Shown here: piece by piece, positions 1,396-57,829 of the stretch | Numbering within the stretch: the stretch's first letter is position 1 | Layout of the letters: each line of letters starts with the position of its first letter | IMG/VR virus record: IMGVR_UViG_3300021399_000102 | Location: 64,001-128,000 of that record | From: a virus | Taxonomy: Duplodnaviria > Caudoviricetes | Length of the DNA stretch: 64,000 bases | Direction: 5' to 3' (one strand) | The notes under the pieces: model-generated | Database searches by the model: none | The model's input: the letters and a program-made list of their open reading frames with translations, nothing else | What the model was told of the DNA's origin: nothing | Position numbers and translations under genes: made by a program

Positions 1396-1402
1396 GTAAA
1401 TA
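1396..1402 (+). promoter_or_regulatory. GTAAATA late-type promoter motif
   Basis: 40 nt upstream of ATG 1442; the same heptamer precedes about 18 genes in the window. Confidence 0.6.
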
Positions 1403-1441
1403 GATATACACAACTCAAAATCCAAACAAGGGTAAATTGAA

Positions 1442-4400
1442 ATGAGGATAGTCATAGACAAGGATATATCAGAGGTCAAGCTCCTTCAGGAGTCTTGGGA
1501 GAAGAGCAAGCCAACCTACAAGGTAGTTGCGGTAAATGATGTGGATAGGTTCGTGTATGCCAAGGGACTCAAGAGCATCAATGAAGCTGTGGATGCCACA
1601 TATGAGTCTGCTTGGGATGGTGCATTTGACGATTGCCACAAGGAGATTGTGGAGGTTGTTGGCGAGAGCGAAAAGACCATATTCTCCACCAACGACAAGG
1701 TTCAAGTTTGCGAGTCGGTTCTATTTTCTGAAGCTTCTGCACCAAAGAAGGGTGGTGGAAAGAATGACGCAAAGGATGCCAAGACTGGTCAGAACAAGCC
1801 TGGAATGTGGGACAAGATAAAGGGTGCTGCTGGAAAGTTGGCTGATGGTGCAAAAAAGGCACTTGATGGTCTCAAGAAGGGATTGAACATCGTTGGTGCG
1901 ATGACAAAGCAATTCTCCAAGGATATGCTTAAGAAGTGGCGTGAAGCTGGATATTTCAACAAGGATGGACGCATCACTGGGCTTGGATACAAGGTCATGA
2001 CAGGACAGGTGAAGAATACTGTTCCCGTGGATACCGGCAACGACAAGGCAGACGACATTACTCAGGCTTGGAAGATTGCGCAATCAAACGTTCAGAATGC
2101 TTGCAAGCAGCAAGGAATGAAAGTCACTGGCGAGGTCAAGGCTATTGTCAAGCAGGATAAAGACCCAATTACCCTGTCAGTTGATGTTACTGACAAGGAT
2201 GGCAACAATTCCACGATTGAACTCAACCAGGATGGAACTACAGTTGATGGTGACGCGCAGAATGCTGACCAAGGTGGTGGTGACAATGGAGGTGGCCAAA
2301 ATGGTGGAGGAGACAATGGTGGTGGTGCAGGAGGGGGCGCAAACATCCAGCAGATAACACCCGACCAGGCGCAGAAGAATCCCAAGGCCGCCCTTGGCAA
2401 CCTCGCCACTCGCGTTGCCAATCTCGAAAAGGAGGTTGGAATCGCAGCAGAGTCTTGGAACTTCAACAACGAGCAGTTCACCAACAAGGCTGGTCTTGAG
2501 CGTCTTACAATTCGCAGGTTCTTCAACGAGATGAACGACCCTTCCGTGAAGGAAATCGTGTTCGTCTCTGAATCTGGCGAGAAGAAGACCTATTACACCA
2601 ATTCTGGCTCCAGCGCATATGCGGCATTCAAGAAGGACTTCAGGGAATCCACAGACAAGTGCGCCAAGGTTTCCAACTTGGTTGGCTACAAGGTCACATT
2701 CGAGTCCTCAACGGCAAAGAGCAACAGAAGGGGATTCAAGTTCTCTGACTTCGGGTTGGATGACGACTTCGATTCCGAATCCAGAACGTTGGTCATCAAG
2801 GAAAGCGTCACGAGGGTGTCCAATGGTGGGGACAACAGAAAGTAGACTTCCACCAAGAAGGAAGTCGTGAAGGAGTCTTCGTCCAATGAAGATTCTGACG
2901 CCAGATTCTCTTCCACTACGGTTGATGCCAAGTCTCCAGAAGCAGACCCAGGAACAAGTGGCTTTGAACTTGAGATTGGGGAACTTGATCCAAAGAAGGA
3001 GGTTGAGGCTCTTCTCAAGTCAATGAACAAGTACAATGGACAGGAGAAGGACAAGCCAGCTGATGGAGATGGCACGATTGACACTGGTGTTTCCACTTAT
3101 CCAGATGTTCCAGAACCAAAGAAGCAGGAAATGAAAGGTGCCGAAACGGGGGAGGAAATCGTCAAGGAAGCCGAAGGGGACGAAGGTGGAGATGATGCTG
3201 GCGGTGACGACGCAGGTGGTGGAGACGCCGACCCATTTGCTGGAGGCGACGACGCAGGGGGTGGCGATGCTGGTGGTGGCGATGCAGATCCATTTGCTGG
3301 AGGAGACGATGCTGCCGGAGGCGACGACGCAGGGGGTGGAGACGACGCAGACCCCTTTGGTGGAGGCGATGATGCTGGCGGAGATGCAGGAGCTGAAGGG
3401 GGAGACGCTGGTGCAGAAGGTGGTGAAGATGCCACATCAGATGCAGGAGCCGCAGGTGGTGACGAGGCCACTGGCGAACCATCTCCAGAGCCAGCGGTGA
3501 ATACTGACGCCCAAGGCAATCCAAAGTCTCAGTACAACATCAACGTAACACGTCCATTCAACGTGGAAGATGATTTCTCCCTTACTGAGGACGAGCAAAA
3601 GGAGTTCTTTGGCAAGATTGATCAGTTGGTGAAGATTCCTGACATGGACAACTATTCGCTTTACCTCTATCAAATCACACCGGAGAACATGAATCTTGAC
3701 GATGTTCACTACATCCAAGCACTCTATGAACTCTCAGTGAAGCTGGGTCTGCTTGAGGATGTCTATGCTGACTCCAACTTGCTTGACAAGTACAACTCCT
3801 ACAAGTATTCAGTTGTGAAGAATGGAGAGGAGAACAAGGGAGAGGACTTCAACGTTCAGGAGCAGAAGAACCCAATCTGGGGCAACAAGATGATGCTTGA
3901 AGCCAAGGATAAGGACACCAAGAAGGTTCTTGGAATGCCAACGGTTCAGACCGACAACGAGGAGAAGAACAAGGAGTCCAGGGAGATTGGTGCGTCTGAG
4001 AAGGACGATGAACGCCGTGGCCCGAAGGACATGAAGCTTGACCTTGACAAGAACGGCGCCCCAAAGCCCAAAATCATCGACACCAGAAAAGATGGTTGGG
4101 AGAAGGAGGGACGTGAGAACAAGAAGTTGATTGATGGAACGGTAGAAGGTGCTTTCCACGGACTTGGCTGGGTTGTGACCTTCAAGGCAATGCAATTTGG
4201 TTCCCCAAGGTTCATGTCAATGTACATCAAGAGGAAAGGTGACGAGAAGGCAGAGAAGCAGTGCGAGGATTACCTCAAGAAGCTTTCCTACACTGAAATT
4301 GAAATCCTCAACATTGAGGAAATCGACCCCTACGAATACATCTATCGTCAAGGAGCTTCAGGGATGAAGACGCCAGAGGAATTGGCTACCGCAAAGGTTG

Positions 4401-4930
4401 CCAACAAGGACATGCCATATTTGGAGAGCAGCGAGGTTCCTGAACTTCCAACTGACATCAAGCGCGATGTCAAGAGGGTGATTACGAAACTCAATGCTGA
4501 GATTCGTGGCACAAAGCAGTTCAACTTCCTTGAGTCATGTGGAGTGGAGAAGCCACAGATTGTGGTAGAGGAGTTCCTTTCTGGCTACAAGAAGGCTCAA
4601 GTGAATGAAACTCTTTCTGAGACCACCTACAAGTGGGTGTTCAAGAAGAATGACGACTTGTTCTCCCGTATGTTCTATTCCAACATGAAGGAGAAGTTGA
4701 TGCAGTATCTTGGAAGTTTCGCTCAGAAGTTCAATTTGGAATGTGGTTGCGAGGTCACGCCTACTGCCATAAAGATTGACTTCATGCGTTCAGAACTTGG
4801 CAATCCAGGATATGACCTTGACACGATGATTGATGCTGACGTTGCGACCCAGCCTGTGGAAGAGCCAATTGAGCAATCCAACGTTGCTCCAACTCTCGAC
4901 CAGGCTATGGAGATTGCAAAGAGCCTGTGA
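1442..4930 (+). CDS. 1162-aa acidic, Gly/Asp-rich protein, probable head/internal virion protein (in-frame TAG at 2843-2845)
   Basis: ORFs 1442..2845 and 2867..4930 join in frame (NRK*TSTKKEVVKES). Low-complexity spacers and many hydrophobic-X-Glu sites resemble T4-like prohead-processed proteins (function is inference). Confidence 0.65.
3175..3465 (+). repeat. Coding low-complexity repeat, GGDDAGG / DADPFAGG units
   Basis: Three DADPF(A/G)GGDDA units and many GGDDA units in the translation. Confidence 0.85.
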
Positions 4931-5005: not shown

Positions 5006-5434
5006 TCAGTAGGACCAATGTCCAGGAGTCCAAATCCGTGTGGGGACTCCATTCACGTATGTGGTTGTGTACATCCCAGGGATCCACACCCTCTGAGGAT
5101 AGGTTGACACTACAGGAGTTGCCACAACTGGGCTTGTCACCACTGGAGCAACAACTGGAGCAACAACTGGCGGTGGAGCAGCAACAACCACTGGAGCAGG
5201 AGCAATTGCGCCCCCAACTACGCCACCCACAACCCCACCGACGAAGCCGGGCCAGAAGTGAGAACCCCCACGCCCCCAAACGCCGTGATGATGGTGATGG
5301 ATAGGACCGTGATGCATAATAGGTGGCGGTCTATGTCCTCCACCAAATCCCCCATGTGGTCCCCCATGCGGTCTTGCGAATACGCTGCATACGCACATTG
5401 CGATAGCAACTACGATTGTCAGTTTCTTGGTCAT
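5006..5434 (-). CDS. Secreted His/Gly/Pro/Val-rich protein
   Basis: Signal peptide MTKKLTIVVAIAMCVCSVFA, HGGPHGG and poly-His tract, C-terminal RVWIPG..RIWTPGHW. Confidence 0.7.
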   Translation of the reverse strand: MTKKLTIVVAIAMCVCSVFARPHGGPHGGFGGGHRPPPIMHHGPIHHHHHGVWGRGGSHFWPGFVGGVVGGVVGGAIAPAPVVVAAPPPVVAPVVAPVVTSPVVATPVVSTYPQRVWIPGMYTTTYVNGVPTRIWTPGHWSY

Positions 5435-5505
5435 TTCAGTACCTCCATTTACTTTGTTTGTTTGTTTATTTGGTATTTACAAGTGTCTTGTATCCCACTA
5501 ATGAC

Positions 5506-5542: not shown

Positions 5543-5899
5543 TTATGTGGATGAGTTTCTTGGCTTGAAACCTGACTTGATGTAGGGAGTGAACCTGTTG
5601 TGCGTCTTTGGCACTATCTTCAGGAGCAACTTGTACATCAATTCTGGTTTGTCTGCCAACCCCTCCAATATAGTAAGGTGGCCGAGTATCAAATTCCTTA
5701 CAAAAATATTTGAGTTCAGAGACAGATATCTGAGAATCATGTAGGACGAGAACACCGATGGGAACAATTCGTTCTTGATGTGGTATTCGTATAGGGCATC
5801 GTCCTTGTCAACGAGAATGTTGCCAAGAATCATGAATATGTCCAAACTTGGCTTTGTCTCGTCTGAACCTTTCTTGGCTTTCTTGTAGTTAAATGCCAT
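5543..5899 (-). CDS. Possible T4 gp62-like clamp-loader small subunit
   Basis: Size and FSSYMILRYLS...LMYKLLLKIVPK pattern recalled from gp62-like proteins; weak. Confidence 0.4.
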   Translation of the reverse strand: MAFNYKKAKKGSDETKPSLDIFMILGNILVDKDDALYEYHIKNELFPSVFSSYMILRYLSLNSNIFVRNLILGHLTILEGLADKPELMYKLLLKIVPKTHNRFTPYIKSGFKPRNSST

Positions 5900-6941
5900 T
5901 GTACCCACCCCTCGTCAATCTCTCGCAAGTCGCTTCATATTCCTTCTCGTCCATATTCAACCTCTTCAACAGTTCGGACTTCGACTTTGCTGCCTCTGAT
6001 ATGTAGGTTGTCAATCGCTTTCTGGATTCAGATGGGATGTCTGTTATTATGGTTGAACACTTGTTGAACACCTTCTTGAACAGATAGAGGAAAATTTGCT
6101 TGTTATCATAGGACTTTTCGTTCTGCTCCACAATGGACAATAGGTATCCCATCATTTGCTTGGCTTTGTCTTTCTCTATGTTATCAATGGCATTTCCCTT
6201 GAATCCCTTGATTGTGTTGTAGAGGTCTTGGTTTGCCTTTGTCCTCAACCTTTCCATTCTTTCCGACCCAGTTTCGCTACCTTCTCCATCTGAGGGGGAA
6301 TGATAGTCGGGGGCAATTGATTCTGGCGTAAGCACTTCCTCCAACGTGGTTGTGTTTCCAGGGTCATTCACCACCAAGGGGGAGCTTAAGGAAGTATGGT
6401 TCTCCATTGCGCCCTTCTCCTGATTGGGCTTCCTCACCCTGTTCAACATCCACCAGGTTGCGAATGTGATGAACTTGTTTCCGCGTTTGGGGTCGAACTT
6501 CTCTGCGGCTATCACCAACCCCTCGTTCGCCATCTGCTTGAAATCGTCCAAGTCATACCATTTGGTTGGAGAGTCTTTCATGTACCTCTTGAAATAGACC
6601 TCAGCAAGATTCTCGCCCGCCTTGGTGTTGTGCAGAACGAGCAATTTGTTCAACTCCGGACGATTGTCCTTGAACAACTCAATCATGCGGAGTTCTGACG
6701 CCTTGTCCAAGGGTATTAGATTCGTCTTGAAGAAGAGCTTCCACTCATCGTCCGTGAAATCCTCTCCGGTCTCTTGTTTCCCAATCTTCTCTGCAAACGC
6801 CTTTACTGCCTTCTTGACTTCCTTGAGATACTTGTCTCTATATCCCTTCGTTGCCCTATTCACATTGACATATGAAACCTTTGCTGGCACAACCTTGCGC
6901 TTCTTCTTGGTCTTCTTTGATGTATTGGCATTCTCTTCCAT
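5889..6941 (-). CDS. Phage sigma70-family RNA polymerase sigma factor
   Basis: Region 2 motif DFKQMANEGLVIAAEKFDPKRGNKFITFATWWM and SLSSPL. Confidence 0.8.
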   Translation of the reverse strand: MEENANTSKKTKKKRKVVPAKVSYVNVNRATKGYRDKYLKEVKKAVKAFAEKIGKQETGEDFTDDEWKLFFKTNLIPLDKASELRMIELFKDNRPELNKLLVLHNTKAGENLAEVYFKRYMKDSPTKWYDLDDFKQMANEGLVIAAEKFDPKRGNKFITFATWWMLNRVRKPNQEKGAMENHTSLSSPLVVNDPGNTTTLEEVLTPESIAPDYHSPSDGEGSETGSERMERLRTKANQDLYNTIKGFKGNAIDNIEKDKAKQMMGYLLSIVEQNEKSYDNKQIFLYLFKKVFNKCSTIITDIPSESRKRLTTYISEAAKSKSELLKRLNMDEKEYEATCERLTRGGYNGI

Positions 6942-7862: not shown

Positions 7863-8315
7863 TTAGCTTGGCATGTTCCAAGTGATGTTGTCAGAGAATG
7901 ATGTATCAGCAATTGAAGTAATTATCATCTGCTTGACATTTTCAGCATTTCCACCATTTGCTGTGATCGTTACGCTTGTAAAATAGTTGCAATACTATAA
8001 CGCACCTTCCTCGATGCTCGTCACGCTGTCCGGTATCGTCAAACGCTCAAGGTCGCTTTCTTGGAACGCATCAGCTCCGATGCTCGTCACTGTGTTTCCA
8101 ATGTCGGCTTGGGTTATTGTCTTTAGCCATATGAAGTTATCTACATCATAATACCCATTATCAACCATCCATTGCCGGTCAAGTGTACCTGTTATGTCGT
8201 GAGTTTCAACGGTTCCATCTTGAAGAGTGAATCTTGTTTCTGGATGTCCAGAACTTCCACCACCTGTTCCAATGACGATGTTTCCACCATTAAGTCTATT
8301 TATGTGTATTGCCAT
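7863..8315 (-). CDS. BspA-like leucine-rich repeat protein 1 (in-frame TAG at 7995-7997)
   Basis: IGNTVTSIGADAF / IPDSVTSIEEGAL*YCNYFTSVTI: the repeat continues past the TAG to TAA at 7863. Confidence 0.8.
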
Positions 8316-8430
8316 TTTGCTTTACCTCGTTGTTATCATATGCTTGTGCATATACATATTTACATAAAATCAGAACGGTTGCCCATTTCTGAGCAACCAT
8401 TCTTCCCGCTTTGAGGTAAAAGTGAGGTGA

Positions 8431-9916: not shown

Positions 9917-10741
9917 TTATTTGGTTCCGGATGAGCCAAATCCACCACCTCGGTCGCTTCCCTTGGTGATGTCGTCATAGACGCAATTGAGGCATTCGCT
10001 CAACTTGAGGTTTATCACTGGGACAATCAACCCTTGGGTAATCTTCATCCCGGGTTCAATCTTCACTGACCCGACATTGTGGTTGAAGAAGCAGAAGATG
10101 ATTTCATCCCTATATTCAGAATCAATCAAACATGCGCTATGGTCAAGTTTGAGTTTGGTGGCAACGCCAGACTTGTTCACCATCATCATAGCAAGTCCCG
10201 GTGGGATAATGGTCTTGATGCCAGATGGGATGGCGACATGTGCGTTTGGACTTACTTCAAGAACATTCCCATCAAACTTCAATCCATCAAATGTAGTCCC
10301 ATCCGGGTTGGGGGCTTCCATGTTCTTGGAATACTTCTTCACAGTATCCTTGAAGTCGTCGTTCCATGCCTTTGCGTCAGGGACAAAGAAGTCGATTCCT
10401 GCGTCGGTTGGATGCGCCTTGGCTGGCTTATTCACCTCTCTGATTCTCGTGAATATCAGGGGTTGGTTTGTGTGGCAATGGCATTTCTCCTTTTCACTTT
10501 CTTGTTCCATCATTTTTTCAATCTCCTTTTCCAAATGTGATTCCGGGAACGTGACCTTTGGCATTGGCACATTCTCGTTCTCTGCTTCCTCCATGTCCTT
10601 CTTCGCGCTTTCCTTGGACTTCTCCTAAAGACTGGTCATTATGTGGTCGATGGTTTCCTCTGTGGTGTTCTCGTCAGAAGCCGCTTCAGCAAGTTTCCCA
10701 ATCAAGTCCACAATGTTCTTCTCTCGTTCGTTCAGTTCCAT
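9917..10741 (-). CDS. dut: Trimeric dUTPase with N-terminal extension (in-frame TAG at 10625-10627)
   Basis: DAGIDF, NKSG, LIDSEYRDEI, KITQGL, RGGGFGSSG. The frame extends through the TAG to ATG 10741, adjacent to the upstream gene's stop. Confidence 0.9.
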
Positions 10742-11157: not shown

Positions 11158-11724
11158 TTATGCTACGTTGATGATGCTTGTGTTGGAAATATCCCATGGG
11201 TAGTTGTCCATCTCTTGAACTTCTTCAAGAGTCTTTCCAAGGAATGTCACGCTCGTAAGTCCGGTGCAGGCCTCGAACGCAGACTCCCCGATGCTCGTCA
11301 CGCCGTTCGGTATCGTCACGCTCGTAAGCCCGCTGCAACCAGAAAACGCAAAATCCCCAATGCTCGTCACGCTGTTGCCTATCGTCACGCTCGTAAGTTT
11401 GTCGCAGTCACAGAACGCCAAAGACCCAATGCTCGTTACGCTATCGGGGATTATCACGCTCGTAAGTCCGGTGCAGGCCTTGAACGCAGAATCCCCGATG
11501 CTCGTGACATCTGAACCGATTTCAAGCGCAACGACATTATAGATATTTGGAATCTATGCTGTTGCACTTCCATCATCATCACTGATTGCTCCAGTTATGC
11601 TGACCGTTCTCCATTCAGTGTCGCCAGCATACTTGTACCAAGTGTCGGCATGAGTTGTTGGAGCAGAACCACTTGAACCAACCGTAATGTTTCCACCATT
11701 TAGTCTGTTTATTTGTATTGCCAT
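11158..11724 (-). CDS. BspA-like leucine-rich repeat protein 2 (in-frame TAG at 11554-11556)
   Basis: Starts MAIQINRLNGGNITVG like paralog 1, reads through SATA*IPNI into four IPDSVTSIG..AF..C..LTSV repeats. Confidence 0.85.
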
Positions 11725-11755: not shown

Positions 11756-12391
11756 TTATTTACACTTTCTTGTTTCTTCAATCTGCTGGCGTTCCATTTC
11801 CGCCATGCAGAATTGAAAGCTTCTTGGTGTCATTGCCATCCACGGCATCATTGAACCAACATTGAGAGAGTTCAGTGGATAGTTCTCGTTCTATGACTTG
11901 TACAACTCAGATTGGCACAACTTGAACGAGTCGTATTCCCAGGAGTTGTGTACATGACCATAGAACATTGGGTTGCCCTTGTATCGGCCATTCCAAGTGT
12001 AGAAGGGATAATGCGTCAGAACCAACCGAACGCCATCCCCAATGTTCTGCTCCTTGTAGTTCTTGATTTCCACGAACTAGTTTCTGAAATCGTTGTCGTA
12101 GAGGAACTGATAGTCGTGGTTTCCCAATATCAAGTGCTTCTGACCCTTCAAGTTCTTCAGGATGTTCACCGTGGTCTTTGTGTCGTAGCAAGACACGTCA
12201 CCTAGGATGAACACATGGTCAGTAGGCTGCACTATGGCATTCCAGTTCTTTGACATCCTGTTGTCGTAATCTTTCGGCCCATTCAACTTGTAGTGGGAGA
12301 ACGTCAGATTGTATGCTGACCTCCGAATGGGATTGGTGTCCGTTTGGTAGCCAAAGTGTATGTCAGATATGTAGAAATAGTTTGTCGTCAC
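11756..12391 (-). CDS. Calcineurin-like metallophosphoesterase (in-frame TAGs at 12077-12079 and 11891-11893)
   Basis: SDIHF, LGDVS, GNHD, then THYP, YGHVH, then NVGSMMPWM lie in three in-frame segments; AAAGGAG SD before GTG 12391. Confidence 0.9.
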
Positions 12392-12545
12392 GAGGCAATG
12401 CTCCTTTCGGCATTTGATGCCGTTGTGGAAGTATTTACAATTCAGAGACCCAATTTGTCCAATAGCCAACCGGTAAGACTTGGCAGTGCAGACAGGAACA
12501 TAAGCAGGTCAAATATGTAGAGGACACCTATTACGCCGAGCCATG

Positions 12546-13154: not shown

Positions 13155-13166
13155 ATTGAAGAGTAT

Positions 13167-13400
13167 TTACAATCCAGACCAGCGATCTTCCCTTGAAGTA
13201 AGGCCAGCAGAAACAACTGCAACCACAAGCAAGAGGGCTATTGCCCCAAGTGCCAATCCAACAGGAATCCAAAGGGGAGCTGTCACCCACCACCAAGACC
13301 AATTGATGACGTGGGTCAGTTTAAGCACAAGAAATGTCAAGAACAAGAGATTGCAAAAGCTTGTTCCACCTACTGTTACGGACGGCTTTGTGTTTATCAT
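13167..13400 (-). CDS. Small phage membrane protein
   Basis: LFLTFLVLKLTHVINWSWWWVTAPLWIP, a motif common in phage membrane proteins. Confidence 0.7.
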   Translation of the reverse strand: MINTKPSVTVGGTSFCNLLFLTFLVLKLTHVINWSWWWVTAPLWIPVGLALGAIALLLVVAVVSAGLTSREDRWSGL

Positions 13401-14430: not shown

Positions 14431-14506
14431 TTTGGGTTGTTTCCTTCCATATGTCAATTATACAATGTTTGCTGTGTATATTTACATGTGGGGTTGCAAA
14501 AAACAA

Positions 14507-19163: not shown

Positions 19164-19181
19164 GTCATTTCCTATTTACCA

Positions 19182-46485: not shown

Positions 46486-47109
46486 TCAACATGTTCCATT
46501 TCTTTTCAGAAGCAACAACGATACTCCAATCAAGAACAAAAGCGAAGATGAAGGTTCGGGGACAAAAGGTGGATTATATGTGTAGAAATCAGTTGGAGTC
46601 CATTGCCCATCAGCTGGCGGCCAAACACCACCTTCCCATATGTAATGTTCTCTTAAATAATTTATTGTTGCTGTATTGGATTCAGCTATTGTCTCATCCC
46701 ATATAAACAGATCCAATGCTTCGCTATATGATAAACTTCCAAGTTGTATTTGAAACAGTGCTTCCGAAAACATTTCTGAACTTATATTTACTGGTGATTG
46801 CGATGCCCAGTTTCCAGTGCTTATACCCCTTCCATCACCTGATTCATCAAAAGAGGAATAATCCCAATATTGACCATTGTTATAAATCGGAAGGACGGTG
46901 CTTGTTCCATCATTGAATGTCACCTTTACCCTAGCACCAACGTCATAACCACTATAACCATCTTCTTCCCACGCATAAGGCTCAATAAACGAAACCAAAC
47001 TCATACCATCAACGGTCGCCGTTTCATTTACTAGCCACCACAACATATCCCCCCATCCAGTGAATGGGAGTAGCATCAATAGCAGTCCATATGTCAGTTT
47101 CTTCAACAT
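46486..47109 (-). CDS. PEP-CTERM sorting-domain protein
   Basis: Signal peptide; C-terminal VPEPSSSLLFLIGVSLLLLKR. Confidence 0.85.
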   Translation of the reverse strand: MLKKLTYGLLLMLLPFTGWGDMLWWLVNETATVDGMSLVSFIEPYAWEEDGYSGYDVGARVKVTFNDGTSTVLPIYNNGQYWDYSSFDESGDGRGISTGNWASQSPVNISSEMFSEALFQIQLGSLSYSEALDLFIWDETIAESNTATINYLREHYIWEGGVWPPADGQWTPTDFYTYNPPFVPEPSSSLLFLIGVSLLLLKRNGTC

Positions 47110-47217
47110 CTCTTCTTTCTACAAAAGCATATTTACATAATTGTACACCAAACGGCAAACAAAAATTATATGGACTGATAATCTCCAGCCCAAAGCTACA
47201 TTCAATTCAATGTTATG

Positions 47218-49549: not shown

Positions 49550-50536
49550 TCACAAGTCGTCCTTGCCAATGCAGAGGTTGTCGTCAAATGCGCATTTACC
49601 CTCGATGAAATCCTGATATTGCTTGTGGATGAAATATATCTTCTTCTCAGGATGTTGTTCGACAACCAATCGCATCTTCTCTCTATCTGAATCTGGATAT
49701 CCACCCTTTACTTCAACATAGATGTCTCTGTCGGGGATATATAGGTCAGGAATATAGTTATGCCAATAGTCCTTGAAATACTTGATTGGAGCAGCTTTCA
49801 CCCACAATATGCCGAGCGCGTTCAATCTCAATGCCACATTCTCCTCCCAATGCCCACGCACAGAGAATTCCTTGCCCTCCAAGTTCTTTACCTTGTACCA
49901 CTTTACCTTCACATGTTCTTTATTGAGATACTGGTTCATGACTTGTTCGGCACGTTTGGCAGAGATTTTTTGGCGGGTTTCAAGGGTGTGTCTATGCTGT
50001 ACTGCGGACTTTGATATCTCTCCATTCTTGTACCTTTCAGAATATGTTCTTCCACCTTTTTTATATGCTTCATCATGCTGACTTTTTAGCGGATGTTTAT
50101 CGCAATGTGCAAGATGACCACCTAATTTTCCTGGACTTGATAACAATTCCTCACAATACGGACATCTCCACAAAGTTTCTCCATTTATTATGACTTTTTT
50201 GGCATGTTCGGCATTGTGTTCATCTTCAATATGTTTCTTTAATTCTTTTCTTGTCAATAGAACTTTACCGCACACTTTACAGGTCCAAGTGCCATACGGC
50301 GATTGCTTTGCAACTTTTCCTTCGGCTCTCAATTTGTCGAGATGTGCCTTTACCTTTGGGCTGTTGTGTTCAATCTCTTTGTTTATAGAACCAACATATG
50401 CTTCTTTACATTCCTTGGAGCAGAATCTTCCTGATCCATATGTGTGGTCATGTGGTTCTCCACAATTTTCACAAGGCTTGTCTTTGTTTGCAAGGCGTTT
50501 CTATGCCATTGCTTTACGATAGCGTTCTTTATTCAT
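49550..50536 (-). CDS. Zinc-finger PD-(D/E)XK endonuclease, homing-endonuclease-like (TAG at 50501-50503)
   Basis: CENCG..FCSKEC, two C2H2-like fingers, HTLETRQKIS (NUMOD3-like), YIPDLY..YVEVKG. Confidence 0.75.
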
Positions 50537-50608
50537 ATTATTTTTACCTTTTTGTTGTTGAAGTCATTCGCGTGACTCCAAATGTATTTACTAATAATTA
50601 TACAAGAA

Positions 50609-50638
50609 ATCTACACTAGGCGCGAACCTAGTGTAGAT
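50609..50638 (-). terminator. Terminator/processing hairpin downstream of the tRNA
   Basis: Perfect 12-bp stem ATCTACACTAGG-TTCGCG-CCTAGTGTAGAT followed by TTCTT. Confidence 0.75.
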
Positions 50639-50645: not shown

Positions 50646-50724
50646 TGGCTGATCCATCCCCTTCACCACGAGGAACCCGGCGGGTTAGGGCCGCCTGTGC
50701 TTTTAGGTATTACACCATGGATCA
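50646..50724 (-). tRNA. Amber suppressor tRNA (anticodon CUA), tRNA-Gln-like, non-canonical D and T loops
   Basis: TGATCCA-TG-GTGT-AATACCTAAAA-GCAC-A-GGCGG-CCCTAAC-CCGCC-GGGT-TCCTC-GTGGTGAA-GGGGA-TGGATCA-G-CCA: all four stems pair and CCA is encoded. Confidence 0.85.
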
Positions 50725-50774
50725 ATTGAAACTGTCTCGTTTCTCATCACATTCAATTATACGAAATCTCGGCA

Positions 50775-53700
50775 TCAAGAGTCGCCCAAATCGACAGCAT
50801 CACTGTCTTGCATCATCACTGGTTGTGTCGCGTTTCCTCCTGGTGCATTCTCAATCGCCAACACGCTGCCAACGGGTATCTTGTTGACTTCCTCTATGTA
50901 CTCTTGGAGATTTCCATGCAAGCCAATTGCAGTCTCCTTGATTTCACTAAACGTCTTCTCTGAAATCTTGTCTCCTCTTATGAGTGCAAGCTTCAGTTCG
51001 CGCTCTTCCCTTGGCAAGTTTGCAATCTTGTTCTCGGCCTCTTGCTTGAGGTTCTTCACTTCGTCGCCCAATGACTTCAACTCCTTGTCCGTAACAGATC
51101 CTGGGTCGTTTATCATCTTCTCCAATATGGCTTCGTAGTTCTGCTCCTGCTTTCTGATGGCTTCCATAGCCTTTATCTTTGCGTTGGCGATAGCCAATGC
51201 TTCCTTGCGCTTTGCCTCCTCCTTGAGCTTCTTCTCGCGTTCTTCCTTTTCCTTCGCTTCTTTCTCTGCCTTGCGCTTGGCTTCCTCTGCCTCTTGCTTC
51301 CTCTTTTCCTCCTCAATCTCAGTCATCGTCTTCGGAGGTGGTTCAAGCACCTTGGTCTGAACGTCGCCAGCCTTCTTGACAATCTTGTTCCCTGAGGATT
51401 GCGCATCAAGTCTGGCTTGCTTCTCCTTCTCCAACCTGTCCCAGAATTGCTTTAGTTGCTTGAGGTAGGTGTAGTCCCCTGAGAATCTGGCCTCGAACTC
51501 GGCCTTCTGCATCAGCTTCTTGAGGTCGTTGATGGAACTTTCGAGTTGGACGTCAGACATGCTTCCAATCTTCCCCCAAATGCCCTGCCAAGACTTCAGA
51601 ATCTTGTCCTTGCCCTTGGCGTCAGGGATACCCATCTGCTCCCTGTAGGAATCAAGCTTCCACTTCTGCCAGAAATGTGCGTTGGAATAGTCTATGACCT
51701 TTATCTTCATGTTGGGGAATCGGAGATGCTTGTACATGAAGGCGAAGATTCCCTTTTGGGACATCAAGGTGTTGAGCTTGACGACACCCTTCAGCAATTT
51801 GGCGTTGGTGTCTTCGGTCTTGTATGTGATTTCGTCAGAAAGAAGTTTCTCAACTATGTTCCATTGTGGGAGTACCTTGTACTTGAGGTATTCGAGGAAC
51901 ACCTGAGCGAAGCCAGCTTGGGTTGGCTCGTCACCCATCACTTGCTTCCAATCATAGCCAGATATGCTGGCCATGTTGAAGAACCAGCTCATCAAGTCGT
52001 GGATTCTGTTCGCCTTTTCAACCTTTGTTCCCTTTGGCAATATCCCTTTTCCAATAAGGAAGTCAATCAATGGGATTGCTGCCCCGACAGTTCCCATTAT
52101 CTGACCATTGGCAAACAAGTCCAACGCGCCAGAATCAAGCCAGAAGTCACGGACGTCTCCATATGTGACTCCTGCCGCCTTTGTTCCCCTCCATTCAGCA
52201 ATCGTGGCGAGAGCTTGCGCTTTTCTCTTCTGTCTATTGGCAAACCTCTTTGTGCGTTCCCACCAACCAAGGTTCTTGCCGTCAGAGAGTTCTCCATTTA
52301 CGTCATCTTTAGCCTTGTCGTAGTCGAGGATTCTCTTTGTGTTCTGAATCCCCTTCTTTGCAGCTTGGAATCCCTTTACAGTAAGGAACGCGGCGCCAAC
52401 TGCTGCTGCCCCCACGACTCCACCAACGGCTACACCTGCAAATGCTGCCGTCTTCCATTTCTATCCTGGGCTTAAGTCATCCCATTTCTCGGAAAGCCAA
52501 CCCTGAGATTGCCCCTTCGCAGTCTCCAAGTTGTTGTCCTTGCCTTGAATCTTACCGGCTCGGAGCTTCTTTAGGAACCTTACAAATCTGTCCTTGAACA
52601 GAACATCCTCTTCCTTTTCATATCCACCAATCTTGTGGCTCACCAAAGCGCTGTTCCATTCTGTCCAATATTTTGCCAATTCCTTCGTGTCTATGGCAAG
52701 AGGCTTTCCTGACCATATTGAATACCCATCCCATCCCTTTAGATATCTGTTGTATATTTCACGTATTGCTTTCGCCCTTGCCAATTCATAGAGAATTGGA
52801 TGCACAGAAATCTTTGCCCCATCTTGCATCCATGTGAATGGCATGAATCCTATGGAATCGGCTTCGGCGTCTGCTGGCTTGCCGAAATACACGTCTGCTG
52901 TCTTGTGCAACGCCTCAAAAGGCTTCAATGGGATGATGGAGCGCAAATCAGATGCCATCACCCTATATCCCCTGTTCCATCCTGTATTTGGATCGTACAA
53001 TGGACCTTTTACGTTCTTGAAGCGTTGGGACTTCGACAACTGAAGGATATATGAATCCAATGTCCTTATCTGAGGGACAATGGCGTCTGCCAAATTCTGT
53101 CTGATCTTTTCAGCCTTCTTGTGCATCGCCTCAATCAGCTATGGAGATGCATTCCCCTGCATTCGGGCAATTTGGATGTATTTAAGTTCGTCTGTGAACT
53201 TTTGGGAGGCGTTGTGAATCGTAACAAGAAGGTCGCCAGAATTTTTGGACTTGAGCCTCTTTTCGACATCTTCCTCTGCTGCATCCTTGCTCTTGTCCAT
53301 CTTGTCCTTTTGCATTTTCTCAGCATTGGCGAAGTTCTTGTTTGTGTGGACAGGGACATGGCGCATTATGGCACCCTTCGTGGGCATCTTGCCTCCAGCT
53401 CTGCTTGACGTCTGAAGTCCCTCTATTGCGTTCAATTGACCCTTGAATGGCTTTACTCCCTTGGCATTGGAGAGCAACATCCCCTTGAATTGGGCAACCT
53501 TGCTCTTTCCACTGGCCATTTGGTCCGCAGCCATGTTCTATGCTTGCTTTTCTACTGATGCCCTCTTGCCAGACCACAACGCCATCACCTGGTTCATTAT
53601 GAACGTGAATATCGCAGGGACGAACTTGGATATGAATATCAAGGTGGAGCCAGCACCAGGGAGAAACAGATTGAGGATGAATCCAATCGCAGCAACAATC

Positions 53701-55871
53701 GCGCCAGCCGCCTTCTTCGTGTGTCCTATGATGATTGAGGCAAATATTCGTATCAGATTGTATTTGGTCGTTATCAAGTCCTTGAAGATGCCCTTCTTGC
53801 CAAAGAGCTTATTCTTCATGTCGCCAAAGAAGAACTTTAACCTGTCCCAATAGTTGGGAAGTCCAACTGTTATGAAGTTCCATATGCCAAGGCCAATGGC
53901 TTTCAACGTGTCCCATCCAGGGATTGGAATTCCGAATATGGAGAACTTAGAACCATCAGATTTTGGCATGTAGGTGGCGCACCATTTTCTGAGAGCCAAT
54001 CTGGCGAGGGTGATGAGAATGAGACCACCTATGATGGTGAATGCAATTGGGGCGATTCCACCCATGAGCAATCCAAGAAGTCCTGGTCCCTTTGGCTTCT
54101 TCTTGAGATCCTTTATGCCTTTCTTGGTTGCATCCAAGTCCTTGGATATGGTGGCTTCAGAATTGTCAATCTTCTTCATCTGCTTTTGCAGACCACCCTG
54201 AATCTTCGTGAAGTTCATCGTGAAGCCATTCTTGAACTTCTTGTTGTTCAATTGTTGTTGAACATTCTGATGCACCTTTCCAAGCGCATTGAGGACTCCA
54301 TTTTTGGTAATCTTGCTTCCACCCTCGCCATCTTCAGAAGATGGTTGTGGAGCTGGAAGTTGAGCTTTCTATGGACTTACATGTGGTACACCAGGTAGAT
54401 GTAAATATCCGCAAATTGGGCAAGGATGTTCCCCATTTTTGGACGGCTTCACATTGAGTTTCGTGTCTTTGGGCTTCTGTGGTGGTTGAAGCTTTGTCTC
54501 ACCGGCCTTCTTCGCTTCCTCTCCTGCCTTGGAAACCTTCGGAACCAATGGACTCAATTCATCCTTCGGTGGTTGTTCCTCCTTTGGATTCTTCTTTGCG
54601 TCAAGATTATCTGTGTCCTTTAGGGTTATCCTCTCCTGATCTTGCTACTTCATCTTCTGAGCAAGGTCTTGTTGAAGCTTGGACTTGTCAAATCCAACTT
54701 CGGGATTGGATATTTTAGTGTCTGCCTTCTATGTAAGGGCGTCAGATTTGTCTGTGTCTTTGTTGTACGCTTCCTCAACCTTCGCCATTGGGCGAATCAA
54801 TGGTGCGGGGATTGGGGTCTTTATCTTTCCATCAAGGATGTTCTTGGCGTATATCGTTCGGAGATATTTTTCCTTTTCCTTTGGATCTTGTATCTCCTGA
54901 AGTGCCTTTGCTTGCTCTGGGGTTATGTTTGGGATAGGAACCTTTGGCGCACCTTCCATTGCAAGAACTTTTCTCCCAAGCTCGTTCTTGGAGGTGTCTA
55001 TCGCAGAGGTTCCTTGTCCAGAAGCCTTTGGTTGTTGGGCTTCCTTCCAAGACTTCTCCTTCGCCTTGAGTTCCTCAACTGCCTTCAACTGCCCCTTTAC
55101 GCCAGCAACGAGCTTGTCCCAATTGATTTTTCTCTGCTCCTTTGCCGCGTCAGTTAGGTTCTTGTCCTCCATCAAGGTTTGGGCGAGAATGTTCTTGCTT
55201 GCATTGCCAGTTGCTTGGTTGAACTTCTCCATCAACTTGGAAAGTTCATTGAGGTGTTCGTCCTTCCATTTCGTCTCGTCTTCTGCAACTTGCCCAAGTG
55301 TCTCTGATATCTCAGTTGTTTGCTGCGAAGATTCTGCCTTCAGATTGTCCAAGTCCTCTTGCTGTCCAGCCAAGGACTTCGCATACTCCAACCTGCGTCT
55401 CTCGTATTCCCTGGAGAGATTCAACTTGACTTGCAATATTGAAGTTTGCAATTCGTCTATGAAGTCAAGCACAACCTGCATTGGGTCGCAGGTCTCTGGG
55501 TCGAGGGTCTTTGTGACAACCTTCTTGGTTGTTTCTGAGACCAATGCCTCATCCACCTTGTCTGGCTCTATTCCCTCTTGCTTGCTCTTGATTACCTCAA
55601 TGAGCTTGTCAACGGCATCCGTATCTTGGACGATTTCAAGAAAGTCGTCGTTCAAGGAACGATATACTGTACGCAACAAGGTCTCTGAATTAGCACCTTG
55701 CTTCAACAACGCCCCATTTGTGAATGCGTCGAAGAGCTTGGTCATGTTGGCATAGATTTCCTCCATGTTCTTTGTCTTGGATACGTTCTCTACGCTTCCG
55801 ACAAAGGACTTGAAGTTCTCTGTGGCCGAATTAAAGACCTTTTGGTTGTCTATTGTGCTTGATTGTGCCAT
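50775..55871 (-). CDS. 1698-aa helical protein, probable tape-measure/baseplate-hub-like virion protein (six in-frame TAGs)
   Basis: Six listed ORFs join in one frame across TAGs at 54729, 54645, 54369, 53538, 53139 and 52461; coiled coils and TM-like Gly/Ala segments; function inferred. Confidence 0.75.
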
Positions 55872-55991
55872 TATGTCACATTTCCATCGTTATCGGTATT
55901 TACCATTTTTGTGATTGGTTTGCAACTGACATATAGCATAACGGTGGTCAATTGCTTGGCCACCGTGTGTTCCTTTTTGTTCTGCTTTATG

Positions 55992-56630
55992 TTATGGAAG
56001 TGTAGTTGCTCCTGGATGCATGGAATCAAGAGATACCCAATTCTCCCCGAAATTGTCGTCGTCAGAATCCTCGTATGGCTCGTCAGCCCTTGGGTCAAGT
56101 GATATTGTCTTGAATGTGCTTGGATCGTAGTGTAACCTGTTGCAAATTGCCTCGATTCTGTTCTGACCAAGTTCCTCGTGTTGGAACCTCTGCGCCTCAT
56201 CTATGTTGTCTGTGAGGACAAGCTCCTTTCCATCCATCGTGGAGACGTAGCCGTGCATGTCGAGGTCGTCGTCATCCATGCGTATCACGATTTCCTCGGA
56301 AATGTCAGCTTCTTCATCGCTTTCGTTCTTAACCTTGTCGTTGTTGAGAGTGGCATCCAAAGCTCCATCAAGTTCCTTGTCATCCTTGAGATTGTCAATG
56401 GCTTTTTGATCTACACCCTTGTCAAGTAGAATGTCCTGCTTTTGCTCTGGCGTCAGAGAATCCTTTGAGATTTCAATGGTATTTTCGTCATCTTCCTTCA
56501 CTATGTCGGTCTTGTCGTCCTTTACGAGCTTGTTGTTGGCGTTTAGCTCTATATTGACAACGCCCTTTTCCATCAATTCCTTGTCAAGGTTCTCGTTAAT
56601 CTGAATCAGTTTATCATAATACTTTCCCAT
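55992..56630 (-). CDS. Acidic late protein
   Basis: GTAAATA at 56656-56662; Asp/Glu-rich. Confidence 0.6.
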   Translation of the reverse strand: MGKYYDKLIQINENLDKELMEKGVVNIELNANNKLVKDDKTDIVKEDDENTIEISKDSLTPEQKQDILLDKGVDQKAIDNLKDDKELDGALDATLNNDKVKNESDEEADISEEIVIRMDDDDLDMHGYVSTMDGKELVLTDNIDEAQRFQHEELGQNRIEAICNRLHYDPSTFKTISLDPRADEPYEDSDDDNFGENWVSLDSMHPGATTLP

Positions 56631-56669
56631 GTCATAACCTCTGTTGGTTTGGTTCTATTTACAATCATT

Positions 56670-57788
56670 TCAGCGAAATGGTCTCATTGCGTCGGCCACC
56701 ACCTTGAACAATTTGTTTCTTGTATCTGAATCCTGAAAGTCCATCAATCCTCTTGCCATCTTGTAGAACTCCCTATCGGTCATCATTTGGAGCAAGAAGT
56801 CAGTGGCATCCACGTTGTGCAAGGTGCAGTCAAGTTCAAACGACTCGAACACCCCATCTGCTGTCTTCATCCATTCATCCACCATCAAAGTGGAAAGGTC
56901 TTTCTTCTCCAATTTCTCGAAGTTCTCGTTCCAATTCTTCTCAATTTTCTCTTGACTGAACAACTTGTATGTTCCACCAGTAGGGGATAGTTTGTCCAGT
57001 TCTTGGCAGAGTTGATTCCAAGCCATCATCTTCACCCTGTTGGTGTATATCCCCTTCTCGTCAGCAAGTATGTGCTTTATGAGCAATTGGGGTGGGTTCA
57101 ATTCATGTCCAGGTTTCCAGGTTCCGCGCAAGTTGAAGCCCATCTTGTTGAACTTTGACAGGAACTCAAAGTATTTGGAGAGGTTTCCAACAAGCACGAT
57201 ATGCTCTGCCTCTGACAATTCTTGGAAGAACTTTGGGTGCAAGAACTCCGGCAAGAACAAGGAATAGCTGAAGTCAATCTTGCTCTTGTCCTTTGTCTCT
57301 AGAAACTCTTGAATCTTGTTCAGAAGCATTTGCCTTGGGAGCAGTCCTCTTTGGAGTACTGTCAAGTCTGCGTCCTTCATGTTGTTTCCAAGCATGGTCA
57401 ATGGATTGTGAAGGGGATCTCCACCAAGAAAGCCAGTTTCAAGCAAGAACCTCTTGTAGTCGATGATAAGTTCCTTGTTGCTTGAAGATTCCATCTGATA
57501 GTTGAAGTACATTCTGGTGATTCTTGGCATTCCTGGGATGCAAGCGAACAATCTGTGCCTGAATGGAATGCTGAACTTGTCCAATACGTCAAGCTTGAAC
57601 ATCCAATATGAACAAAGGGACATTCTCACTGCGTCAAAGAGAATGTTGTCGTCAGCGAGAGAACAGTTCAATTCGACCACAGCAGGTGTGGTCGCTGGAG
57701 ACATAATCAAGTCATCCAAGTTCAAGGGACATTGAATGTAGTCCTTTGGATTTGGTGGAGCAATGTTCTTCTTCTTTCCTGGCATCAT
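56670..57788 (-). CDS. Hypothetical protein
   Basis: Long ORF; likely start MMPGKKK, since the listed longer start overlaps the divergent gene. Confidence 0.6.
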   Translation of the reverse strand: MMPGKKKNIAPPNPKDYIQCPLNLDDLIMSPATTPAVVELNCSLADDNILFDAVRMSLCSYWMFKLDVLDKFSIPFRHRLFACIPGMPRITRMYFNYQMESSSNKELIIDYKRFLLETGFLGGDPLHNPLTMLGNNMKDADLTVLQRGLLPRQMLLNKIQEFLETKDKSKIDFSYSLFLPEFLHPKFFQELSEAEHIVLVGNLSKYFEFLSKFNKMGFNLRGTWKPGHELNPPQLLIKHILADEKGIYTNRVKMMAWNQLCQELDKLSPTGGTYKLFSQEKIEKNWNENFEKLEKKDLSTLMVDEWMKTADGVFESFELDCTLHNVDATDFLLQMMTDREFYKMARGLMDFQDSDTRNKLFKVVADAMRPFR

Positions 57789-57829
57789 ATGAAGTATACA
57801 ACTTGCGCCAAAAATGGTAAATACAGTTG

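Follow-up and report, generated by a model that had tools for sequence, protein, structure and literature searches.

Amber codons partition with a putative GTAAATA late promoter in a T4-like phage that reads TAG as glutamine

In a giant T4-like phage that reads TAG as glutamine, TAG codons are nearly confined to genes that lie behind the motif GTAAATA, and this partition was replicated in an independent complete relative. The window analyzed is a 64,000-nt stretch (positions 64,001 to 128,000 of IMG/VR record IMGVR_UViG_3300021399_000102) of a contig that is 48% complete according to CheckV, with a source genome of roughly 415 kb. Our best explanation, to which we give a probability of roughly 60%, is that GTAAATA is a late promoter and that a suppressor RNA, a late sigma factor and the late genes would be connected in a feed-forward loop. 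Gut and rumen viromes commonly contain phages that alter the meaning of a stop codon in the course of infection. That this phage is T4-like, with a capsid protein of the Gp23 family, is new in this analysis.

We refer to transcription units behind GTAAATA as L units and to those behind TATAAT as E units, the latter divided into E1 (with a -35) and E2 (without a -35); early and late are labels deduced from promoter type and gene function. Gene models were home-made, with a start choice that favors motif-proximal ATGs, and terminators were disregarded in the definition of units. G001, a complete 414-kb relative, served as the independent replication genome, and G002 and G003 are further complete relatives.

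Distribution of TAG between promoter classes

TAG is read as glutamine (code 15) in this phage. Read-through is real, given the 13, 6, 1 and 3 in-frame TAGs in ORFs of 3613, 1698, 1162 and 877 amino acids, respectively; read-through genes in the window include those at 1-697 (+), 50775-55871 (-) and 57830-60463. Across 166 ortholog pairs, glutamine was the top partner of TAG (34 cases). Every TAG position in the phosphoesterase aligns with glutamine or TAG, and one TAG in G002 sits on a glutamine that is invariant even in T4 gp55.

In the window, 9 of 24 genes in GTAAATA units contain TAG, compared to 3 of 71 in TATAAT units (Fisher p = 1.5e-4), and robust internal TAGs number 28 and 0, respectively. 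Over the genome as available, there are 78 robust internal TAGs in L units and 0 in E units, compared to 219 and 28 in G001. Per 1000 codons, L units carry 3.33 TAGs and E units 0.29 here (Fisher p = 4e-9), compared to 4.06 and 0.76 in G001 (p = 5e-21). The difference is also seen between whole units (Mann-Whitney p = 1e-4 here and 1.6e-10 in G001), and none of 5000 label permutations matched it. TAG use climbs stepwise from E1 to E2 to L, and dual-promoter genes avoid TAG (2/15 vs 56/110, p = 0.006).

The initial annotation had proposed this association and named a contingency test controlled for gene length as a check; the association holds in every length stratum, and the TAG densities that it had said should differ between the classes do so. 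Its description of early genes as code-neutral agrees with the lack of robust internal TAGs in TATAAT-unit genes, from which TAG stops are also almost absent. Likewise, the block of about 31 kb that it had described as free of internal TAG contains no true case: one apparent TAG is a start miscall at codon 5, and the other is a terminal TAG with TGA directly after it. Two genes had been listed as TAG-containing exceptions outside GTAAATA units. The dut exception is real, with an N-terminus ahead of the TAG that is conserved in a relative, and it is the single true exception within the window. The truncated first gene is no exception, because its start, beyond the window edge, has a GTAAATA 36 nt ahead of it. 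The dut TAG and the 28 robust TAGs in E units of G001 are counter-evidence to our best explanation. The further proposal that late genes need both the late promoter and the code switch fits about half of the L units, of which 46% here and 62% in G001 contain TAG; the remaining units, and the major capsid gene, are TAG-free.

GTAAATA as a candidate late promoter

GTAAATA ranked first among 7-mers in an unbiased scan upstream of genes, the kind of motif discovery that had been suggested for it. The window holds 25 copies, a count that none of 100 dinucleotide-preserving shuffles attained (2.96 ± 1.5 copies). All 18 sites that had been listed previously are present, one of them off by a base (55897, not 55896), along with 7 unlisted copies. 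Genome-wide, 43 of 62 copies are intergenic, although intergenic DNA makes up 11.7% of the genome; shuffled intergenic DNA, with which equal frequency would have spoken against the motif, yields 3.6 ± 1.95. Within intergenic DNA the motif is 12-16 times enriched, and 35 of the 43 copies point toward the 5' end of the neighboring gene.

In logos of 44 sites from this genome and 118 from G001, information is confined to AAT[G/T]GTAAATA, with no -35. TTgACA is visible in the same analysis of the TATAAT class, which comprises two subclasses, with and without a -35, a distinction that is new here; the tRNA and gp55 promoters fall in the subclass without. The distance from GTAAATA to the ATG is bimodal in two genomes, at 5-10 nt (leaderless) or 18-50 nt (with a Shine-Dalgarno sequence), and spacings of 11-17 nt are almost empty. 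TATAAT has parallel spacing classes with a 2-nt offset. Back-to-back GTAAATA pairs between divergent genes have a fixed 18-nt spacing. Of the G001 genes, those for the Gp23 capsid, terminase and sheath-like proteins all lie in L units and that for DNA polymerase in an E unit; in this genome, the tail sheath stabilizer and a tape-measure-like gene are in L units. Orthologs retain their promoter class (odds ratio 69, p = 7e-19). These features support the view that GTAAATA behaves as a T4-type late promoter, a -10-only element, and it would most likely be read by host RNA polymerase with a phage gp55-type late sigma factor.

The late promoter is TATAAATA in T4 and KVP40 and NATAAATA in cyanomyoviruses, and gp55 is the late sigma factor (PMC2988020, PMC2984593). 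AAT[G/T]GTAAATA is probably this clade's variant of these elements. As in T4 late transcription, an 8-11 bp -10-only element with no -35 precedes capsid, terminase and tail genes, the capsid belongs to the Gp23 family, and the complete relatives have a gp55 homolog of T4 size. Unlike in T4, the consensus has G in place of A ([G/T]GTAAATA), one or two positions off TATAAATA, between about a quarter and a third of all promoters are of the leaderless type, 5-10 nt ahead of the ATG, back-to-back pairs with a fixed spacing occur often, and the gp55 gene of the relatives has an N-terminal extension bearing an amber codon.

Table 1. Features of the window (L element, GTAAATA; coordinates are window positions unless stated)
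Feature	Position	Strand	Remarks
3' end of 3613-aa gene	1-697	+	13 TAGs in whole gene; L element 36 nt before its start, beyond the window (genome position 53813)
L element	1396-1402	+	39 nt before 1162-aa gene 1442-4930 (1 TAG)
L element	5474-5480	-	39 nt before ORF 5006-5434 (GGAGG ribosome-binding site, TAG-free)
Sigma-70-family protein, region 2 only	5889-6941	-	350 aa, TAG-free, E1 unit
L element	8357-8363	-	41 nt before gene 7863-8315 (1 TAG)
dUTPase gene (dut)	9917-10741	-	One real TAG, at codon 39; TATAAT unit without -35
L element	11757-11763	-	32 nt before BspA-like LRR gene 11158-11724 (1 TAG)
L element	12432-12438	-	40 nt before phosphoesterase gene 11756-12391 (2 TAGs, at positions that are Gln and TAG in G001)
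L element	13164-13170	-	9 nt before ATG of 12546-13154 (leaderless type, TAG-free); motif within inverted repeat
L element	14479-14485	-	48 nt before glycosyltransferase gene 13450-14430 (TAG-free); TATAAT in between, dual promoter
L element	16208-16214	-	90 nt before gene 14567-16117 (TAG-free)
Divergent L pair (17801-17844), (-) member	17801-17807	-	Serves 17426-17767 (1 TAG) and 17031-17423 (2 TAGs)
Divergent L pair, (+) member	17838-17844	+	8 nt before ATG of 17853-18077
L element	18560-18566	-	37 nt before read-through ORF 18121-18522 (3 TAGs)
TATAAT-dominated block, about 31 kb	18578-49528	-	NAD ligase, thymidylate synthase, many small genes; no true internal TAG
L element	19173-19179	-	9 nt before ATG of 18879-19163 (leaderless type, TAG-free)
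L element	35334-35340	-	21 nt before 623-aa glucosyltransferase-like gene 33441-35312 (TAG-free), within TAG-free block
L element	36596-36602	-	64 nt before gene 36175-36531 (TAG-free)
Tandem stop TAG-TGA	44636-44641	-	Ends gene 44639-45049; rare TAG stop in early-type units
L element	47130-47136	-	20 nt before ORF 46486-47109 (TAG-free from that ATG)
Composite promoter	50585-50602	-	TATAAT 50597-50602 then GTAAATA 50585-50591, before ORF 49550-50536 (TAG at codon 12 if ATG at 50536 is used)
Terminator-like hairpin, then T run	50609-50638	-	Just past CUA cloverleaf; read from sequence
Non-canonical cloverleaf RNA, candidate amber suppressor	50646-50724	-	CUA centered in 7-nt anticodon loop
Promoter without -35 and leader of CUA RNA	50725-50761	-	TATAAT at 50756-50761, then TGA
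1698-aa gene	50775-55871	-	6 in-frame TAGs; G001 ortholog with 8
L element	55897-55903	-	25 nt before 1698-aa gene
L element	56656-56662	-	25 nt before gene 55992-56630 (TAG-free)
L element	57817-57823	+	6 nt before ATG of 877-aa gene 57830-60463 (leaderless type)
Tape-measure/lysin-like gene	57830-60463		877 aa, 3 TAGs
L element	61034-61040	-	6 nt before ATG of 60503-61027 (leaderless type, TAG-free)
Second sigma-70-family protein, regions 2 and 4	62292-63065	-	257 aa, TAG-free

The candidate suppressor RNA and the late sigma gene

The suppressor tRNA of the initial annotation does have the TATAAT of its own that was described there (50756-50761, minus strand), and this promoter is conserved, but the cloverleaf is non-canonical in this genome. 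It has neither the D-loop GG nor the T-loop TTC, was undetected by ARAGORN in standard mode and by Rfam, was found only in the permissive mitochondrial mode of ARAGORN, and folds no better than shuffled sequence (z = -0.37). G001 shares the conserved non-canonical cloverleaf at that place (86% conserved, with a compensatory G-C to A-T change), and G002 and G003 have canonical tRNA(CUA) genes in this position, preceded by the same promoter and leader. The promoter and leader cassette is conserved in all three relatives, and the TTTCAA spacer at the CUA RNA is the one found for the array tRNAs. No canonical tRNA has a CUA anticodon here (0/32) or in G001 (0/28).

A search with T4 gp55 identified ORFs of 188-192 amino acids in G001, G002 and G003 (E = 1e-6 to 3e-7 per genome) and gave no match on this 48%-complete contig. 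The region-2-only sigma of the window is not related to gp55. All 10 distinct copies of the gp55-like gene that were found have an in-frame TAG at codons 24-26, with the exact codon shifting within this 3-codon window. The N-terminus before the TAG is conserved, and G001 offers no alternative start codon. In the complete relatives, this gene has the same kind of -35-less promoter as the suppressor. Because the gp55-like gene of the relatives carries a conserved TAG, the two layers of control would be in series and not only in parallel, the late sigma factor being made only once the suppressor works; the serial arrangement is carried over to this genome by extrapolation from relatives with 57-62% sigma identity. 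The change of code probably must precede the start of late transcription. We put at about even odds the stronger claim that the suppressor RNA is the master timer, with the amber codon in the gp55-type sigma tying late transcription to the code switch; this would entail three promoter tiers, namely host-type promoters that have a -35, TATAATTGA promoters that lack one, and GTAAATA.

In the proposed circuit, the amber-suppressor RNA would be transcribed from its own -35-less promoter (TATAATTGA). Genes transcribed solely from GTAAATA may hold TAG because they would be translated after the suppressor RNA accumulates, and genes behind sigma-70-type promoters would be kept TAG-free, in sense and stop positions, because they would have to be translatable before the suppressor RNA has built up. 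The suppressor would allow synthesis of the late sigma, which would act on the late promoters and thereby on the late genes, many of which may also be suppressor-dependent, making the circuit a coherent feed-forward loop. Three elements of this scheme are inferred, namely the timing, the pairing of sigma factors with promoters, and the ability of the cloverleaf in this genome to be charged and to decode TAG.

In code-15 phages of the gut and rumen, TAG encodes glutamine, recoded codons concentrate in structural and late genes, early genes are compatible with the standard code, and a suppressor tRNA has been proposed as the switch (Borges et al., bioRxiv 10.1101/2021.08.26.457843; Kienbeck et al., PMC10879173). 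Promoters were unanalyzed in both studies (the word "promoter" occurs 0 times in Borges et al.), and the trigger of the code switch and its link to the transcription cascade have been called poorly understood (PMC10879173). The phage described here resembles these phages in its use of TAG as glutamine, late and structural enrichment, and code-compatible early genes. Unlike in those accounts, TAG content sorts by defined promoter classes, the candidate suppressor is driven by its own conserved promoter, the late sigma gene is itself recoded (in the relatives), and neither a release factor nor GlnRS is encoded here. The double-requirement logic also resembles a synthetic "leak dampener", a coherent feed-forward circuit engineered in E. 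coli, in which output needs both transcriptional activation and a suppressor tRNA reading silent nonsense codons, with less leak and added delay (Ho et al. 2020, PMC7969014). Here this logic is deduced from sequence only, the arrangement is natural, and the suppressor would also gate a transcription factor. The clade offers a concrete, testable wiring diagram composed of promoter classes, a conserved promoter for the candidate suppressor and a putatively suppressor-dependent late sigma gene. It also suggests annotation rules for such genomes, concerning which code applies to which genes and the many leaderless starts. If true, the circuit would be a natural coherent feed-forward loop coupling a genetic-code change to a sigma cascade, and a natural counterpart to engineered suppressor-tRNA circuits.

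Alternative explanations

One alternative, possible but in our view doubtful, is that TAG is only tolerated, drifting from CAG or CAA where translation follows an abundant suppressor and being removed from genes that act sooner. A shared cause, expression time, would then underlie both promoter class and TAG content, and individual late genes would gain no further control from TAG. The positions of TAG are spread uniformly over genes (KS p > 0.1) and turn over fast between orthologs (7 of about 57 sites shared), a pattern closer to tolerance than to a lock designed for every late gene. Consistent with this, TAG is a steady 9.5-9.7% of glutamine codons in L units of both genomes, 38-54% of L units and the capsid gene are TAG-free, and TAG density drops with rising codon adaptation (rho = -0.41 and -0.38). 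However, drift does not readily account for the gp55-like gene, in which TAG is kept within three codons in 10/10 copies though the exact codon moves, and in whose gene class TAG is 1-3% of glutamine codons. Tolerance elsewhere is compatible with a true gate at gp55.

Our best explanation assigns GTAAATA to a gp55-type factor. It seems unlikely that the motif is instead read by a sigma-70-family protein of the window, such as the region-2-only sigma. Its absence of region 4 would suit a -35-less promoter, and its gene has no TAG, belongs to an E1 unit in both genomes and is conserved across the clade. However, this protein retains the sigma-70 TYATWW signature in region 2.3-2.4, which fits a TATAAT-like -10, a second -35-less promoter class (GTATAATTGA) is available for it to read, and GTAAATA matches the gp55-type consensus in a clade where all complete relatives have gp55 homologs. 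A role for GTAAATA at the RNA level, marking processing sites or enhancing translation within 5' leaders, is very improbable: the motif does lie in or adjoin leaders, and its short-spacing class occupies the place of the Shine-Dalgarno sequence, but the divergent pairs at fixed 18-nt spacing, the spacing classes equal to those of TATAAT, and the resemblance to T4-type late promoters in a clade with gp55 all argue for a promoter. We attach almost no weight to an artefact of gene calling or regional clustering. Although our gene caller gives start codons a bonus near motifs, and L units and TAGs both concentrate in structural modules, TAG counts are independent of the motif, and the effect persists when transcription units are compared, when labels are permuted, within each length stratum and in G001 as an independent complete genome. 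Even at 5-20 kb in the window, where L and E units are interleaved, they still sort by TAG content.

Promoter classes and the distribution of TAG codons

TAG codons are partitioned near-completely by promoter class in this genome, and the partition is replicated in an independent genome. The window represents bases 64001-128000 of a single virus contig of 201,557 bp and 45% G+C, which has sequencing adapter remnants at both ends (genome positions 1-12 and 201546-201557). The contig encodes a family-B DNA polymerase and a C-terminal portion of the major capsid protein, which belongs to the T4-type Gp23 family. CheckV estimated its completeness at 48%, and the contig covers about half of a roughly 415-kb genome. 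Three relatives, G001, G002 and G003 (414, 434 and 418 kb), all complete with direct terminal repeats, were reached by way of homologs of a sigma-like protein that the window encodes. Genes were modeled with TAG read through and with codon-usage scores, which gave 252 genes for this contig and 452 for G001. A gene took the class of the nearest upstream promoter word on its own strand, and the assignment was inherited along co-directional runs. The gene caller is simple, as are the promoter words (the exact 7-mer GTAAATA for late-type L units, exact TATAAT for E units, and a -35 score threshold), and transcription units were defined without regard to terminators.

In this contig, L units contain 3.33 TAGs per 1000 codons compared to 0.29 in E units, and TAG occurs in 23 of 69 L genes and 6 of 164 E genes (Fisher p = 4e-9). 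The corresponding values in G001 are 4.06 and 0.76 TAGs per 1000 codons, and 69/137 and 26/296 genes (Fisher p = 5e-21). The difference holds when whole units are compared (Mann-Whitney p = 1e-4 in this contig and 1.6e-10 in G001), was reached by 0 of 5000 unit-label shuffles in each genome, and persists in all four gene-length strata. When the first 40 and last 5 codons are excluded, because TAGs at those positions mostly reflect miscalled starts or genuine stops, the remaining robust TAGs number 78 in L and 0 in E units in this contig, 219 and 28 in G001, and 28 and 0 in the window alone (Fisher p = 1.5e-4). Across this contig and G001, TAG accounts for 9.5-9.7% of the Gln codons of L units and for 1-2.7% of those of E units. 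Orthologs in these two genomes keep their promoter class (odds ratio 69, p = 7e-19). Genes with both promoter words upstream are TAG-poor (2/15, compared to 56/110 with GTAAATA only; p = 0.006), as expected if the decisive condition is that a gene be expressed only late. Most apparent exceptions to the partition dissolved into starts miscalled upstream of leaderless promoters (genes of 2575, 606 and 381 aa) or an uncalled gene. The dut gene, already singled out in the initial annotation, is a true exception, since the N-terminus preceding its TAG is conserved in G001.

Alignments indicate that TAG is most likely read as Gln. Reading through TAG joins fragments into ORFs of 3613, 2575, 1825, 1698, 1162 and 877 aa that contain as many as 13 TAGs. 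Across 166 pairs of orthologs from this contig and G001, Gln is by far the most frequent partner of TAG (34 cases), and in a phosphoesterase that is 86% identical, each TAG is aligned to Gln or TAG. In G002, a TAG occupies the Gln of a FAYFTQxCW motif, a residue that is invariant even in gp55, the late sigma factor of T4. For the 1698-aa protein, neither tblastn against annotated phages nor a peptide-pattern search of IMG/VR gave a match. One gene in an early-type unit terminates in TAG followed immediately by TGA, a backup stop that would curb read-through once the suppressor is present.

The word GTAAATA is a promoter-like motif of the T4 late type. It occurs 25 times in the window, compared to 2.96 expected, and 62 times across the contig, with 40 of the 62 copies in the correct orientation within 100 nt upstream of genes. 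In a prior-free k-mer scan of the 100 nt before genes it ranked first among 7-mers, followed by GTATAAT. The initial annotation had named a comparison with shuffled intergenic DNA as a test that could refute its reading; dinucleotide-preserving shuffles of intergenic sequence gave 3.6 +/- 1.95 copies compared to 43 observed in this contig, and 5.7 +/- 2.3 compared to 90 in G001. These intergenic copies are aimed at the 5' end of the neighboring gene in 35 of 43 and 85 of 90 cases, respectively. Genome-wide, GTAAATA outnumbers its reversed control word 118 to 31 in G001 and 117 to 23 in G003, with a weaker excess in G002 (128 to 70). The extended L consensus is AAT[G/T]GTAAATA without a -35 element, and identical analysis of TATAAT sites yields an extended -10 plus a -35 that resembles TTgACA. 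The late promoters known from T4-type phages read TATAAATA, and the cyanomyovirus version is NATAAATA (PMC2984593).

In this contig and G001, the distance from GTAAATA to the start codon is bimodal. A short class of 5-10 nt has its mode at 8 nt and lacks a Shine-Dalgarno, a long class covers 18-50 nt, and distances of 11-17 nt are nearly absent. TATAAT falls into the same two spacing classes, the short one lying 4-7 nt from the ATG (mode 6), likewise with no Shine-Dalgarno. Bimodal spacing is expected of a -10 element if many transcripts are leaderless. Leaderless mRNAs seem to be common for both promoter types, including those of the genes for the 1825- and 2575-aa proteins. Back-to-back L promoters of the form TATTTAC-N18-GTAAATA separate divergent genes 10 times in G001 and once in this contig.

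Coordinates of promoter, sigma factor, CUA RNA and other features (window positions unless marked otherwise)
Feature	Source	Position	Remarks
Sigma-70-family protein, region 2 only	Window	5889-6941	TAG-free E1 unit in both genomes; clade-conserved
Sigma-70-family protein, regions 2 and 4	Window	62292-63065	TAG-free; clade-conserved
CUA RNA of the cassette, non-canonical cloverleaf	Window	50646-50724 (-)	Likewise in G001
CUA RNA of the cassette, ordinary tRNA	G003 (locus L112)	1424-1500	
CUA RNA of the cassette, long-variable-arm tRNA	G002 (locus L114)	1369-1458	
TATAAT and GTAAATA separated by 5 nt	Window	50585-50602	Upstream of conserved post-suppressor gene
Back-to-back L pairs, fixed spacing	G001 (loci L091-L111)	e.g. 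36052, 86844, 100260, 149283	
Back-to-back L pair, fixed spacing	This contig	147299 (genome position)	
Divergent L pair	Window	17801/17838	Spacer of 30 nt
GTAAATA within inverted repeat	Window	13140-13170 (-)	GTAAATA at 13164; GTAAATACTCTTCA / TGAAGAGTTTAC; repeat covers start codon of gene 12546-13154
ATG 5-10 nt after GTAAATA, no Shine-Dalgarno	Window	13164, 17838, 19173, 57817, 61034	
Short-spacing sites	This contig	37837, 149441, 160655, 166426, 168077 (genome positions)	
Gp23-family major capsid gene	G001	204540-206198	Late unit; TAG-free
TAG stop followed by TGA	Window	44636-44641	Early-type unit

Relatives carry a conserved TAG in their gp55-like late sigma gene

G001, G002 and G003 yielded ORFs of 188-192 aa when queried with T4 gp55, and this half-genome contig yielded no match. 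The gp55-like genes (13 loci, 10 distinct sequences) share the conserved N-terminus MPRRK[T/S]ESLEEFQKKNL, and every copy has at least one TAG at codons 24-26 (patterns xRx, xKQ, QxQ, QKx and xKx). These TAGs precede the core of the protein that is homologous to T4 gp55, and the G001 gene has no ATG, GTG or TTG between them and this core. Elsewhere, only 7 of about 57 TAG sites are shared between genomes, so the retention of TAG in the gp55-like gene suggests that it is kept by selection. All copies have a TATAAT 93-102 nt upstream of the ATG, mostly followed by TG. About 28 nt downstream of this TATAAT, 62-68 nt upstream of the ATG, every copy (loci L119-L124 and L127-L133) also has an antisense TATTTAC, the late-promoter word in the opposite orientation, which could serve in feedback or interference. 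We infer that gp55 reads GTAAATA and that the same TAG gate operates in this genome.

Borges et al. have already published both the concentration of recoded codons in late genes and a model of code-compatible early genes and recoded late genes; their study contains no promoter analysis. The trigger of recoding has been described as poorly understood (PMC10879173), and a synthetic feed-forward circuit with a suppressor tRNA exists (PMC7969014). Full-text literature searches turned up no account linking a promoter class to recoding, nor one of a late sigma factor that is itself recoded.

The candidate suppressor locus

Neither the 32 tRNAs of this contig nor the 28 of the complete G001 include a canonical one with a CUA anticodon. 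What the initial annotation called a suppressor tRNA is a conserved locus with its own TATAAT promoter, as proposed, but its cloverleaf is non-canonical. It has an acceptor stem of 7-8 bp and a 5-bp stem with CUA centered in a 7-nt loop, without the usual D-loop and T-loop signatures, and its fold is no more stable than that of shuffled sequence. ARAGORN called it in mitochondrial mode alone; it was not called a tRNA in standard mode, with lowered thresholds or introns allowed, or by Rfam at E <= 10. The cloverleaf is 86% conserved in G001, where CUA is retained and a G-C pair of the anticodon stem has undergone a compensatory change to A-T. The TTTCAA spacer preceding it also lies directly before 14 of the 32 array tRNAs. 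Its promoter and leader (TATAAT TGAATGTGA... AAACGAGACA) are found again in G003 and G002, followed there by canonical tRNA(CUA) genes, and its position and promoter are thus those of the clade's amber suppressor. This cloverleaf may decode TAG in this genome. The suppressor gene appears to have been replaced by another at the same site, behind a conserved promoter and leader cassette.

An exact anticodon-arm search matched only two unrelated contigs, the CUA tRNAs, when crudely compared with the other tRNAs of the phage, showed no Gln-like identity, and searches of the four genomes returned neither a release factor nor a GlnRS domain. Past the suppressor, TATAAT and GTAAATA lie close together in the window, and directly past the G003 tRNA they overlap as TATAATTGTAAATA. 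This composite may act as a promoter both early and late.

Late-unit functions and promoter tiers

Judged by gene function, from which we infer the temporal order, L units are late. In G001 they include the Gp23 capsid gene, and the genes for the terminase (5 TAGs) and a sheath-like protein (3 TAGs), and the DNA polymerase gene is in an E unit and has no TAG. Directly behind L elements in this contig are genes for a tail sheath stabilizer (7 TAGs) and a tape-measure/lysin-like protein (3 TAGs); its E units include NAD ligase, thymidylate synthase, a helicase and many small genes. Most of the TAG-rich giant proteins matched no PHROG family, so the late label rests on a few hallmark genes.

The initial annotation envisioned late genes held by two parallel locks, promoter and code. 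For individual late genes this is only half right, as 38-54% of L units are TAG-free and the G001 capsid gene has no TAG. These observations are consistent with tolerance of TAG in late genes, as are the uniform positions of TAG along genes (KS p > 0.1) and the lower TAG density of late genes with higher codon adaptation (rho about -0.4). The stronger regulatory link would lie upstream, at gp55.

The TATAAT class itself divides in both genomes into E1 promoters with a -35 (TGTGGTATAATAT) and E2 promoters without one (GTATAATTGA), at an arbitrary cut. TAGs per 1000 codons rise from 0.12 in E1 to 0.51 in E2 and 3.33 in L units in this contig, and from 0.29 to 1.61 and 4.06 in G001. The suppressor and the G001 gp55 gene have E2-type promoters. 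The window also encodes two sigma-70-family proteins, neither of which is gp55; for the region-2-only protein the hhalign probability was 0.1%, and it matched no annotated late sigma factor. Homologs of this protein, with 44-97% identity, occur on contigs of up to 433 kb, among them an 87%-identical one on contigs of 414 kb. That a sigma factor without region 4 reads -35-less promoters is offered only as an attractive guess.
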